NCBI GenBank assembly: GCA_963755715.1
Contig: CAVWLW010000002.1
Span: forward strand, 39,345-103,344
Length of the DNA stretch: 64,000 nucleotides
Reading direction: 5' to 3'
Origin: an uncultured delta proteobacterium
Lineage (GTDB): Bacteria > Desulfobacterota > Binatia > UBA9968
Below the pieces are notes generated by a model that worked only from the letters and a program-made list of their open reading frames with translations, was not told where the DNA came from and searched no databases. Both the position numbers and the translations under genes were made by a program. Positions 1-9,447 of this stretch are shown one piece after another (within the stretch, counting starts at the first letter, position 1; each line of letters opens with the position of its first letter).

Positions 1-252
1 GCGCCATTCCAAAACCTCCATTTGACGGATGCCACGGGCATGGTGCGGATCGCGCGCCGCGAGCGCTTTAGCTTCATCTAGACTCGTTGCTAACATGACG
101 TAGATGCCGTAAGCGCCGTCGGTGGTCGGTCCCGAGAAGAGCAGGCGGCCGGCCCGATGCTGATCATCGAGCCATTGCCGGTGCGCTTCATAATTGCTCT
201 GTTTGTCCGCTTCCTTTTCCGCCAATGAACGTGACATGACGAGGTACCACAT
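1..252 (-). CDS. YciI-like protein (runs off window start)
   Basis: Read manually, not in the ORF track. AAGGAG RBS, ATG at 252, MWYLVMSRS...YEAHRQWLDDQHRAGRLLFSGPTTDGAYGIYVM...EAKALAARDP matches the YciI pattern H-x3-L...G-x-L-x-x-S-G-P...D-P. Confidence 0.75.
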   Translation of the reverse strand, partial: MWYLVMSRSLAEKEADKQSNYEAHRQWLDDQHRAGRLLFSGPTTDGAYGIYVMLATSLDEAKALAARDPHHARGIRQMEVLEWR

Positions 253-4814: not shown

Positions 4815-5819
4815 TTATTTGCCGCTGTTGACCTGGCGCACAAAACGGTCGTCGAAAAATTGCGCGGGTTTGGCGGTTTTCGCTTCCGGTATCGATTCGG
4901 AGAGAAAATCCAAGATTCCTTGAAGACCCGGTTCAGACGTCACGAGCTCGCGGCGGAAGCCGGCTTTCTTATAAAACTCATAACTGCGGTCGAGCACATC
5001 GTGATCGGTCTCTTTAGCGTATTTGCCGATCACTTTCATGGCAAAAGCTTTGTCGGCGTAGTAGCGCTCGACACCCGCGCGGACTGCGCGCAGCAGCGGG
5101 ACGAGGCGAGATCCGAGCTCGTCCATGCGACCTCGCCGGACGACAAGGCCGACGTTTTGATAGGGCACATCCAGCAGGCTCACAAGTGAATGAAATCCAT
5201 CACGCTCCAATTTAAAGCTGGCGGGCGGCGAGCCGACGCCGCCGGCGATTTGACCGGCGTAAAACGCCGCGACGATTTGCGGACTGCTGCCGAGCGGGCG
5301 CAGTTGAACGTCCTTGGGGGTGAGGCCCATTTTCTTCAGTGCGACAAGCGTTCCGTAGGCGACCGGGGTTGCCGGGCGATCGGTGCCGATGATTTTGCCT
5401 TTGAGCTGCTCGACGTTCTTGATTTCCGGGCGCGCGTAAAAATCCCAGATCATCGTGTTCAACAGACCGGCGACGAACACGACGTCGATGCCGCGTAGAG
5501 ATGCGGTGAGCACCGGTGCCGCGGAGACCTCGACGACGTCAATTTCGTTGGCAATCAGTGCAGGGATGGCACTGCTGGAAGACATGGAAAGAACTTCCGT
5601 GTCCAGCGCTTCTCTTGCGAACCCGCCGCTATCCTTGGCCATCCAAACCGGCGCCATGGTTGCCGAAGTGCTCAGATAAGCGACGCGCAGAGGCCGGGCG
5701 CCACGCGTGGTCGCTTGCGCCTGGCTTGCGCTTGGCGCGATTAAGAACATAACCGTAAACAGGAGGCCTGCGTGAAGCCAGGCCGCGCCGAGGTAATCGG
5801 TGGAGACGTTAAACCGCAT
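4815..5819 (-). CDS. NitT/TauT ABC substrate-binding protein
   Basis: APVWMAKDSGGF, QLKGKIIG, C-terminal FFDDRFV; GAGG RBS. Confidence 0.85.
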   Translation of the reverse strand: MRFNVSTDYLGAAWLHAGLLFTVMFLIAPSASQAQATTRGARPLRVAYLSTSATMAPVWMAKDSGGFAREALDTEVLSMSSSSAIPALIANEIDVVEVSAAPVLTASLRGIDVVFVAGLLNTMIWDFYARPEIKNVEQLKGKIIGTDRPATPVAYGTLVALKKMGLTPKDVQLRPLGSSPQIVAAFYAGQIAGGVGSPPASFKLERDGFHSLVSLLDVPYQNVGLVVRRGRMDELGSRLVPLLRAVRAGVERYYADKAFAMKVIGKYAKETDHDVLDRSYEFYKKAGFRRELVTSEPGLQGILDFLSESIPEAKTAKPAQFFDDRFVRQVNSGK

Positions 5820-6416: not shown

Positions 6417-6977
6417 TTACGGCGTCGCTCGCACGGCCGGGCGGTCGAGCAGACGTTGCATCCAGGCTTTCACGTGCGGCAGATCGCTGCCGATCGTCGT
6501 TTGGTAGCGCTGCAAGCGGCAGAAGAACGGGATGTAAGTAATATCCGCTAAAGAATACTCGCCGGCGAGGTATTCCCTCTCGCGCATTTCTTGATTCAAG
6601 GTCGTGAGATAACCGCGCACCTTTTCTTTCGACTTCTCCACCTCATGATCGTGAGCAATATATCCGCCGGCTTGCTGTAAGCGCGTATTGCAGTAATCGA
6701 TCCAGATGCGCGCTCGCGCCCGTTGCAGAGGGTCGCGTGGCAAGAGCGGAACCTGCGGATATTTTTCTTCCAGATATTCGTCGATGATCGCCGATTCGTA
6801 GATGACGCCGTCGCCATCGACCAGCACCGGCACTTTAGCGTATGGATTCAGTCTCAGGAGGTCTTCCGGTTTGTTGCTGAGGTCGCACTCGATGAGTTCG
6901 TAGGAGAGTTTTTTCTCGGCCAGGACAAGCCTTGTCCTGTGGGCGTAGGGTCAAGGCTGGTAGGAATAAAGTTTCAT
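6417..6977 (-). CDS. Glutathione S-transferase family protein, probable selenoprotein (in-frame TGA at codon 9)
   Basis: AAGGAG RBS, then MKLYSYQP-TGA-PYAHRTRLVLAEKKL...LNPYAKVPVLVDG...YESAIIDEYLEE, all in frame with ORF 6417-6833. TGA at 6951-6953. Confidence 0.85.
6921..6939 (-). promoter_or_regulatory. Putative bacterial SECIS hairpin
   Basis: Minus-strand CAGGACAA-GGC-TTGTCCTG: a perfect 8-bp stem with a G-starting loop, beginning 11 nt 3' of the in-frame UGA. Confidence 0.7.
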
Positions 6978-6995
6978 GGCTTGCTCCTTTTCATT

Positions 6996-7370
6996 TTACT
7001 TGTCGTTGGCGAAACGTTTGGTGTTAATGACCGCACGTCTATGATTACCGGCGCCGATCTTGATCCCCTGGTCGTTAATCGCTGAGACGGAGTAGCGTAT
7101 TTTGTTGTCCTTGACTTCAGTCAACTCGGCCGTGATTGTAACGCTCTGGCCAATTCTTGTCGGCGCCAAATGGTAGACGTCCACGTGGATGCCGACAGTT
7201 TGCTCGTTTTCATCGAGATGCGGTTCCGTGAGATCGACGCAGGTCCGCTCCATGAGTCCGATCATCGCCGGTGTCGAGAAGACGTCGTTCTCGAGCTGGC
7301 TCGCGCGCATCGCCATAGTCGTGACGTAAGTCGCGGTTCGAGTGAGGCCGGATGCCAGACTGCTTTTCAT
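6996..7370 (-). CDS. FlK-like (fluoroacetyl-CoA) hotdog thioesterase
   Basis: VFSTPAMIGLME...TVG.HVDVYHLAPT (Thr/Glu/His triad), G.H.RAVI. Confidence 0.85.
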   Translation of the reverse strand: MKSSLASGLTRTATYVTTMAMRASQLENDVFSTPAMIGLMERTCVDLTEPHLDENEQTVGIHVDVYHLAPTRIGQSVTITAELTEVKDNKIRYSVSAINDQGIKIGAGNHRRAVINTKRFANDK

Positions 7371-7513
7371 GAAAAGAATATACGGGAGAGCGGAGGCCTG
7401 GCGCAACTCCGAGCAATGCACGGGGTCTGTTACGTGGGGTCTGGCGCTTGATTTTCACCTCTTGCTTCTGCCTTTTGAATTCCTGGCTAGGATTATATTA
7501 GCGCCGAGTCAAA

Positions 7514-8149
7514 TCAGTACAAACCGGGAATCAATCGATAACGTACCGCAGCCATGTAGTTACGATAGATCTCATCCTGAGCGAGTAATCGCTCTTCGAA
7601 TCTGATGCGCCACATCATCAAAACGACGCCGGCGAGAACCACGCTGCTATTGTAAAGGCTCGGATGGCGCATGAGGGTGCCAAGCGCCGCGACTATGTAG
7701 GAAAGATAAATAGGATGACGCACGAAGCGATACACGCCGGAGGTTCGGATATCTCGAAGAGAGGGCAGCACAGCGAAGCTGCGGCCCAAGCACTGGATGG
7801 AAATGATCGTTGTTATTGAGCCGATGGCAGTGACCACGCCACCCACGAAACCAAGCACGGCCGAAGACGTCGGCTTGACATCGAAGGCGAGAAAGTAAAT
7901 CAGCGATAACAACGTGACCAGGATTTCCAGCGGGCGTTTGGTTGAGTACCGCGCCGGTTGACGGATGGCGAAGATGTAAGCGCATTGGATGTGAAGAGCC
8001 ACGAACAACCATATCGGGGTATACGCATCGGGTATGGCATAGCGCCAGGTAAAGACGGCCAATACCAGCGATAGGGCGACCCAGAGCAAATCGAGCTTGC
8101 GATGCTTAATTTCAAGCGATCTCGACATTGTCAATGATTGTGTAGGCAT
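7514..8149 (-). CDS. Isoprenylcysteine carboxyl methyltransferase/PEMT family membrane protein
   Basis: LGRSF, G.YRFVRHPIY, R..FEE..L, Y..Y...VRYRLIPGLY. Confidence 0.85.
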   Translation of the reverse strand: MPTQSLTMSRSLEIKHRKLDLLWVALSLVLAVFTWRYAIPDAYTPIWLFVALHIQCAYIFAIRQPARYSTKRPLEILVTLLSLIYFLAFDVKPTSSAVLGFVGGVVTAIGSITTIISIQCLGRSFAVLPSLRDIRTSGVYRFVRHPIYLSYIVAALGTLMRHPSLYNSSVVLAGVVLMMWRIRFEERLLAQDEIYRNYMAAVRYRLIPGLY

Positions 8150-8397: not shown

Positions 8398-9447
8398 GTG
8401 AGCGAAATGTTATTACCCTTTCGTGAACATCTCGATTTCGGTCCGACGCCGTACGACCAATTGCAGGCAAAAGAAGGAATTCCGATCATCAAGGGCAACG
8501 TCGTCGCCGATGTGACGGCCTTGGAGCTCGGCAGATGGGAGCGCACGGGCGCGATGGGTTGCTATCTCAATCTTTCCAATCAGCAACTGACAGACGCCTA
8601 TGTGTGCGAGATTGCTCCCGGCGGCCAGACGTTGCCGCAGCGGCATCTGTTCGAGGAAATCATTTATGTCGCCAAGGGGCGCGGCGCGACTTCGGTTTGG
8701 CAGGAAGGCGCCGGCAAAGTCACCTTTGAATGGGCGCAGGGCGCGATCTTCGCGATTCCGCTGAACGCCTCGTACATTCACTACAACGGTTCGCGCGACG
8801 AACCAGTCCGCCTGTTTGCCGGCACGACTTGCCCGCGCATGATCAATATTTTTCACAACGAGGATTTCATCTTTCGCAATCCATTTAATTTTCGCGATCG
8901 CTTCCACGAAGGCGACGAGTTTTTGCGCTACAACAAGCACATGGCAGAGCGCTACTGGGAAACCAATTTGGTGCCGGACGTCAATCAATTCGCCCTCGAC
9001 GATTTTCCCATGAAAGGCAAAGGCGTTAAGCACATGCGCTTTACGCTCGCCGACACCACCTACGGCTGTCACGTCTCGGAGTTTCCGCCGGGCTGCCGCA
9101 GCACTTTTCATCGCCACGGCCCGGGCGCGGTGATCATCATTACGCAAGGCGAAGGTTACGTCGTGCTGTGGAAAGACGGCGAAGAACGGCAGCTCCATCA
9201 GTTTAAAGTCGGCACCGTCTATTCGCCAGACGATCTCATGTGGCACGGCCACTTCAATACCGGCAGCGGTGCCATGCGCCACTTTGCCATGCGCGGCGAC
9301 AGCCCGAAGTACAGCCATGACCGCTTTCGCAATCCGTTGTGGACGATGATCCCGATGGATGAAGAGCCGCCCGATATTCACCGCGAGTACGTCGATGTGC
9401 TCAAGGAAAAAGGCGTAAAAGCCGCGGTGTCGGTGGTGGAAGATTAA
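8398..9447 (+). CDS. Bicupin protein (gentisate dioxygenase-like fold)
   Basis: Two cupin motifs: QRHLFEE.IY...G.G and FHRHGPGA...WHGHFN. AGGAG upstream. Confidence 0.75.
   Translation: MSEMLLPFREHLDFGPTPYDQLQAKEGIPIIKGNVVADVTALELGRWERTGAMGCYLNLSNQQLTDAYVCEIAPGGQTLPQRHLFEEIIYVAKGRGATSVWQEGAGKVTFEWAQGAIFAIPLNASYIHYNGSRDEPVRLFAGTTCPRMINIFHNEDFIFRNPFNFRDRFHEGDEFLRYNKHMAERYWETNLVPDVNQFALDDFPMKGKGVKHMRFTLADTTYGCHVSEFPPGCRSTFHRHGPGAVIIITQGEGYVVLWKDGEERQLHQFKVGTVYSPDDLMWHGHFNTGSGAMRHFAMRGDSPKYSHDRFRNPLWTMIPMDEEPPDIHREYVDVLKEKGVKAAVSVVED

Follow-up and report, generated by a model that had tools for sequence, protein, structure and literature searches.

Positions 6977 to 6417 on the minus strand of the window, i.e. 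of the whole stretch of 64,000 nucleotides of DNA that we analysed, very probably code for a cytosolic, Cys-type glutathione S-transferase (GST) of 186 residues whose predicted catalytic residue is selenocysteine (Sec). Its ninth codon, a UGA, would be decoded by means of a SECIS element and SelB, and the protein would have a redox role. A preliminary description of this DNA had put forward a selenocysteine-containing GST, and this proposal is supported by the conservation of the TGA, the constraint on the hairpin that follows it, the pairing of the TGA with Cys in homologues and a genome that encodes the Sec machinery. The features of the locus are collected in Table 1.

Table 1. The putative Sec-GST gene, its predicted elements and its neighbours (positions in the window).
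Feature	Positions	Strand	Description
Putative Sec-containing GST, complete CDS	6417..6977	minus	186 codons + TAA; thioredoxin-like N domain, helical C domain
Shine-Dalgarno (SD) sequence AAAGGAG	6984..6990	minus	6 nt 5' of the ATG (6977..6975)
UGA codon 9, predicted selenocysteine	6951..6953	minus	U-P-Y motif, predicted catalytic position; N-terminus of helix alpha-1
Candidate SECIS apical hairpin	6921..6939	minus	CAGGACAA / GGC / UUGUCCUG; begins 11 nt 3' of the UGA
FlK-like hotdog thioesterase	6996..7421	minus	PF22636, 4.6e-32; 18 nt from its end to the GST start codon
Bicupin gene	8398..9447	plus	Kept nearby in 12/34 named related loci
NMT1-like substrate-binding protein	4815..5819	minus	Kept nearby in 11/34 named related loci

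The gene elements that had been pointed out, namely a ribosome-binding site, an ATG, a TGA as codon 9, the residues P-Y-A and an open GST frame, can all be read directly on the minus strand. The ATG is followed by seven sense codons (K-L-Y-S-Y-Q-P) and then by the TGA (6953..6951). On its 3' side the frame continues with P-Y-A-H-R-T-R-L-V-L and stays open until the TAA at 6419..6417, which gives 186 residues on read-through. The gene was indeed missed by ORF calling, as the ORF listing of the window contains at this place only a 138-residue ORF that starts at the GTG at 6833. In Pfam searches, the read-through product matched GST_N_3 (PF13417; 7e-21, residues 3-75), PF13409 (4.9e-20) and GST_C (PF00043; 6e-12, residues 111-180). 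Since the matches to GST_N_3, GST_N_2 and GST_N fall on residues 1-75, the TGA is located inside the N-terminal domain and not 5' of the gene.

When 60 related genomes were searched in six frames, homologues turned up throughout this set, and we fetched 70 homologous loci. The codon aligned to codon 9 is TGA in 69 of them; in the remaining locus (L051), which a contig end truncates, the sequence starts at residue 23. We analysed 68 genes, i.e. the 69 TGA loci minus one (L029) that belongs to an unpublished genome (G005), and the alignment column of codon 9 contains TGA in all 68. Among the matches listed, all those with at least 49% identity that cover residue 9 hold exactly one TGA. The TGA form was found, among the matches listed, in 56 of the 60 related genomes, or in 54 of 58 if the unpublished genomes G005 and G035 are left out. 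No TGA form is present among the matches listed for G001 (65% complete), G004 (92%), G048 (93%) and G033, the match of the latter being cut by a contig end. Most of the related genomes harbour two paralogous putative Sec-GST forms, among the matches listed. The source genome of the window similarly has a second one (L074; G000:C43:138076-138633, minus strand), 59% identical to the first; the corresponding codon is again TGA, and the same hairpin follows with a GGA loop.

The TGA was also checked in public sequencing runs. Four runs, each from a different study (two DNA and two RNA libraries), have contigs that bridge the site and keep the same codon, and no other letter occurs at positions 6951..6953 in these contigs. 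One of the DNA runs may be the source sample of the window, so that these data amount to at most three independent confirmations. One RNA-library contig (X16) represents the sequence of a relative, with three nearby substitutions and the same TGA.

We then considered whether the frame behaves as a coding sequence on both sides of the TGA. All 68 genes have an in-frame start 5' of the TGA with no intervening stop. An SD-like motif accompanies it in 67 of them, 8 codons before the TGA in 58 genes, 9 codons in 8 and 6 codons in 1; start and SD motif are thus conserved 8-9 codons 5' of the TGA in 66 of the 68 genes. The pN/pS ratio, calculated over 2278 pairs, is 0.50 for codons 2-8 (seven codons), 0.25 for codons 10-48 and 0.37 for codons 49-186. 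The earliest possible restart 3' of the TGA is a GTG at codon 49. Codons 10-48, which lie between the TGA and this first downstream start, would therefore be untranslatable if the TGA terminated translation, and nowhere else in the protein is the constraint as strong. Purifying selection acts on the frame both before and after the TGA.

The preliminary description had noted a perfect stem of 8 bp with a GGC loop, 11 nt after the UGA. This hairpin is present at 6939..6921. Its 5' arm (CAGGACAA, 6939..6932), its loop (GGC, 6931..6929) and its 3' arm (TTGTCCTG, 6928..6921) make eight perfect pairs, and the 11-nt spacer that separates it from the TGA occupies positions 6950..6940. A lower stem of 2-3 bp between GCC (6944..6942) and GGC (6921..6919) is possible and appears only in some single-sequence folds. 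The 19 nucleotides of the hairpin are almost invariant in 62 distinct sequences, whereas the flanking third codon positions vary freely. Thus, within codons 13-19, His is encoded by CAC, Arg16 by AGG and Val by GTC in 68 of 68 genes, and Thr by ACA in 61 of 68. The mean normalized synonymous entropy is 0.12 for codons 13-19, as compared with 0.76 for 57 other conserved degenerate columns, none of which has a value of 0.1 or less, and none of 100000 permutation draws was as low as 0.12. Selection therefore acts on the nucleotide sequence itself over the hairpin, as expected for a SECIS element located within a coding region.

The evidence for pairing as such is of another nature. In the 62 sequences, 96% of the 496 cells (stem pairs in each sequence) are paired, and sliding the 3' arm lowers this proportion to 25-51%. 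Five of the eight stem pairs are invariant, and a single compensatory change, from A-U to G-C, was found (L042). The 20 unpaired cells are due to mismatches at pair 2 (C-U) and pair 7 (U-U) and to sequences that have lost the closing C-G pair. The covariation score was reached by 8 of 500 shuffles, a nearly uninformative result as the stem hardly varies. Single-sequence folding gave z-scores between -1.45 and -1.64, with 10-18 of 200 shuffled sequences folding equally well, and when 71 nt are folded together, the fold of minimum energy is a competing helix of which the UGA is part. The folding energy was discarded as evidence in either direction; the non-randomness of the hairpin is shown by the comparative data. 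Pairing is plausible and the predicted element is appropriately positioned, its formal support coming mainly from invariance; the constraint could in principle act on the primary sequence and not on pairing.

A search of the whole source genome for the TGA-plus-hairpin pattern found it at two places only, which are the two putative Sec-GST genes, and this exact hairpin is therefore not the general SECIS of the genome. An Rfam scan of positions 6700..7100, at E values up to 10, yielded no SECIS family; a match to a retron msr on the other strand was dismissed, as its score of 16.5 bits is at chance level, the gathering score being 52. Numeric limits are known for bSECIS elements, the E. coli fdhF SECIS follows an 11-nt spacing rule, and the loop of this classic element is larger than the 3 nt seen here. 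The description of bacterial SECIS elements in a passage of PMC1088965 is that of a stem-loop directly 3' of the UGA, its apical loop being small and including a G, and the 8-bp stem that starts 11 nt after the UGA, with a GGC or GGA loop among homologues, corresponds to it. This compact, nearly invariant 19-nt hairpin is a natural candidate SECIS suited to testing of SelB recognition.

The source genome (7.4 Mb in 76 contigs, 93.6% complete) contains the machinery that a Sec-GST calls for. As the preliminary description would lead one to expect, selA (617 bits), selB (416 bits), selC (tRNA-Sec, 76.7 bits, contig 69) and selD (213 and 155 bits, in two pieces) were all found, with scores above the curated cut-offs. 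The genes selA, selB and selD are contiguous and arranged head to tail (C3:71086-75411). The selD gene (G000:C3:71086-72013; L010 and L011) has a TGA of its own, at the catalytic position of the G-x-A-A-K motif ('...KAAG*AAKLGP...'). In addition, its reading frame seems to shift at an A-run near C3:71650, so that the gene is split over two frames. This frameshift, if true, would disable Sec synthesis; it is probably an assembly indel. ARAGORN predicted no tRNA in the window itself.

To look at the residue at the aligned site in more distant proteins, we used an exhaustive HMMER search of 1.84 billion cluster representatives, which gave 15155 matches at E <=0.001. Among the best 150 of these 15155 matches, 128 cover the site, with Cys in 102, Ser in 22, Asp in 2, Trp in 1 and Asn in 1. 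The 102 Cys forms from these best 150 include 61 with CPF, 38 with CPY and 3 with other motifs, so that 99 have a C-P-F/Y motif. The expected pairing of TGA with Cys at position 9 is thus borne out, with TGA in 69 of the 70 related loci and Cys in 102 of the 128 distant representatives from the best 150 of 15155. The closest full-length Cys forms among the matches listed (P0124 and P0125) are 48-51% identical to the window GST. All entries closer than these two, among the matches listed, are N-terminally truncated fragments, a pattern characteristic of Sec genes that ORF finders have miscalled. Among the matches listed for the 60 relatives, there is no orthologue of the Cys form. The same genomes also encode non-Sec paralogues, the nearest of which are ~40% identical and have Ser in an S-P-N/S context (20 of 20 fetched). 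In the source genome, such Ser-type paralogues are L094 (G000:C43:154242-154832) and L095 (G000:C59:200869-201450), which are 37-41% identical to the window GST and in which the aligned site reads S-P-N or S-S-N. One Ser-type paralogue is encoded 16 kb from the second putative Sec-GST gene.

The AlphaFold model, built with an alignment of 45 sequences, has a mean pLDDT of 96.9 and a pTM of 0.92 and shows a canonical GST fold in which the G-site is intact. In the model, the protein begins one residue before strand beta-1, and residue 9 is found in the beta1-alpha1 loop, at the N-cap position directly before the helix spanning residues 10-21. The best fold matches in the PDB are 4qq7, 4hoj and 6v91 (TM scores of 0.87-0.88, ~35% identity), followed by plant tau and human omega GSTs. 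The same three structures, from Burkholderia (6v91 and 4qq7) and Neisseria (4hoj) and deposited as SspA/RegF proteins, are also the best sequence matches (E values from 2e-35 to 1e-33). Their C-P-F motif aligns with the U-P-Y of the window GST, and the titles of 4qq7 and 4hoj indicate bound glutathione. In contrast with the window GST, they have Cys and not Sec, and they are 197-211 residues long as compared with 186; what these proteins do is itself poorly defined. With the window GST, all NCBIfam models score below their cut-offs.

Omega GSTs have a catalytic Cys in a C-P-F context, an N-terminal extension of ~20 residues before beta-1 and a thiol-transferase/reductase chemistry that proceeds via a mixed disulfide with GSH; the mechanism that we propose below is modelled on this chemistry. 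The sequence of human GSTO1 (1eem) matches residues 2-184 of the window GST with an E value of 1e-26, and both proteins have Cys or, as predicted for the window GST, Sec in a C-P-F/Y-type motif at the N-terminus of helix alpha-1. The window GST differs in being bacterial and in having Sec where omega GSTs have Cys. It also lacks the N-terminal extension, as its residue 2 aligns to residue 25 of the 1eem chain, and is therefore not a formal omega GST. By analogy, it would work like an omega GST, and we do not file it as one.

In the mechanism that we propose, the UGA at codon 9 would be decoded by SelB and Sec-tRNA(Sec), recruited by the short candidate SECIS hairpin within codons 13-19 of the coding sequence. 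The protein may act as a glutathione-dependent oxidoreductase, as Cys-type GSTs and engineered seleno-GSTs would suggest. Its selenolate would attack a disulfide, a glutathionylated substrate or a hydroperoxide, and the resulting selenenyl-sulfide or selenenic acid would be resolved by GSH from the G-site. In the engineered seleno-GSTs (theta, zeta and Lucilia enzymes with a Ser-to-Sec change), Sec similarly occupies the catalytic position beside the G-site; in contrast with the window GST, they were obtained by chemical conversion or by expression in Cys auxotrophs, on Ser-type scaffolds and with no natural recoding of UGA. According to PMC9944854, engineered GSTs in which Sec takes the place of the catalytic Ser have glutathione peroxidase activities of the same order as natural glutathione peroxidases. 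A rather doubtful extension of this analogy is that the whole branch might be a natural GSH-dependent selenoperoxidase on a GST scaffold, i.e. a second independent origin of a 'glutathione peroxidase', organized in this genus in an operon with the FlK-like thioesterase. Nature would then have its own equivalent of the engineered seleno-GSTs. The occurrence of the Sec form in 56 of 60 relatives, usually in two copies and with no Cys orthologue seen among the matches listed, suggests that selenium confers a real catalytic advantage.

Other readings of the locus must be weighed against that of a Sec-GST enzyme. The TGA might be a genuine stop codon, in a pseudogene or as the result of a sequencing or assembly error, and the product, if any, would then be the 138-residue ORF from the GTG at 6833. 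This is extremely unlikely. ORF callers and public databases do give only truncated products of 136-177 residues, and the assembly holds at least one apparent indel, in selD. However, the error to be expected in this assembly is an indel and not a substitution, and the same TGA recurs in 69 of 70 loci from dozens of independent assemblies and in the contigs of four runs. Purifying selection on codons 10-48 (pN/pS 0.25) argues in the same direction, and a protein starting at codon 49 would be deprived of the beta1-alpha1-beta2-alpha2 part of the thioredoxin fold. We also regard as very unlikely that the UGA is read through without Sec, by near-cognate insertion of Trp or Cys or following a lineage-wide change of the code, with the hairpin being only a read-through stimulator or a pause site. 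TGA is otherwise a normal stop in the source genome, with 20 of the 49 stop-to-stop frames of at least 300 codons in the window ending in TGA, and the genome has the full Sec machinery. A public record from JGI (P0006) has W at the site, which would fit this explanation, as would a hairpin that is short and shows little covariation, the Sec assignment of the UGA being itself a reading of the sequence; yet the site corresponds to the catalytic Cys in 102 of 128 homologues (from the best 150 of 15155), and a Trp would kill catalysis.

Finally, the protein could be a true Sec-GST with a regulatory role, as an SspA-like factor associated with RNA polymerase, and not an enzyme. What speaks for this highly unlikely possibility is that SspA (NF007016) is the best NCBIfam match and that the best sequence matches in the PDB were deposited as 'stringent starvation protein A'. 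The NCBIfam score, however, is 115.4 bits for a cut-off of 314, and the deposited proteins 4qq7 and 4hoj were crystallized with glutathione and keep the C-P-F motif. Canonical SspA is not known to have the Cys, and the two representatives with Asp at the site, among the best 150 of 15155, fit such an SspA without Cys. Moreover, the costly Sec would hardly be maintained at a site without catalytic use. A Sec-GST that functions as an enzyme thus remains the preferred reading.

A Sec-GST is not new in kind, as selenoproteins with U-P-Y/W motifs have been published since 2005. The part of Zhang, Fomenko & Gladyshev (2005; PMC1088965) that deals with the Sargasso Sea data lists GST among 15 new selenoprotein families, with four sequences. 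Its supplement includes sequences with '...uPWVQR...' (TGA at 37..39) and '...uPYAIR...' (TGA at 34..36), in which the TGA is 12-13 codons from the start. Twelve GST selenoprotein sequences are counted in a passage of the 2008 GOS study (PMC2398784), and a 'GST-like protein' appears in tables of the 2022 and 2026 reviews (PMC9312934 and PMC13188914). No natural Sec-GST is known to have been characterized biochemically; according to the 2026 review, the functions of such selenoprotein families are largely uncharacterized.

The GST-like selenoproteins of 2005 and the window GST share GST domains (COG0625/PF13409), one TGA-encoded Sec, predicted in the case of the window GST, ~9-13 codons from the start and, as compared by eye only, a P-Y or P-W following the Sec; Cys homologues are widespread in both cases. 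In contrast with the published sequences, which are marine metagenome reads, the window GST belongs to a branch from soil and sediment. This soil branch has two putative Sec paralogues per genome and a near-invariant candidate SECIS, and its likeness to the marine sequences is one of domains and motif. Our literature search found no paper that combines 'Binatia' and 'selenocysteine'. What is added here is an order-restricted soil branch, its order-wide fixation with two Sec paralogues, an almost invariant SECIS and a correction of annotation. All the public protein records that we found for the branch (P0002-P0121) are either truncated products of 136-177 residues that start after the TGA or, in the case of P0006, mistranslated with a W at the site, and the catalytic residue of a widespread enzyme of soil bacteria is consequently invisible in databases. 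Similarly, as no NCBIfam model matches at its cut-off, annotation pipelines are without a rule for this selenoprotein. The general picture of selenoprotein biology is unchanged by these results, and what is gained is one well-supported member and a correction of its annotation.

With regard to genomic context, the thioesterase gene is directly 5' of the GST gene in 12 of the 34 named related loci, all of them with a GST identity of at least 67%. The distance of 18 nt between its stop and the GST start suggests an operon, and the two genes are probably co-transcribed. A PEMT/ICMT-like gene (7514..8149) was rejected as a conserved neighbour of the GST gene, as it is found in 0 of the 34 loci.

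The titles of the records for the related loci are mostly those of 'Candidatus Binatia bacterium' or '(uncultured) delta proteobacterium' metagenome-assembled genomes (MAGs), and most of the runs that contain the sequence are metagenomes of soil, rhizosphere, mines and sediment. In two soil RNA-seq libraries, contigs X15 and X16 cover positions 6750..7058 and 6895..7049 of the window, respectively, and span the start, the TGA and the hairpin. This coverage is compatible with expression of the GST in soil and is not proof of it, as DNA carry-over is possible. At the strict threshold of E <=1e-45, a search with the window GST found no match in a sample of 150 other genomes of the phylum, four of which belong to the same class. 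Orthologues with 73-85% identity were also found in three MAGs titled Verrucomicrobiia, Chloroflexota and Eisenbacteria (L118, L121 and L127). The titles of their nearest relatives read Binatia or Deltaproteobacteria, and these three cases likely reflect inconsistent taxonomic labels or binning errors, and not transfer.
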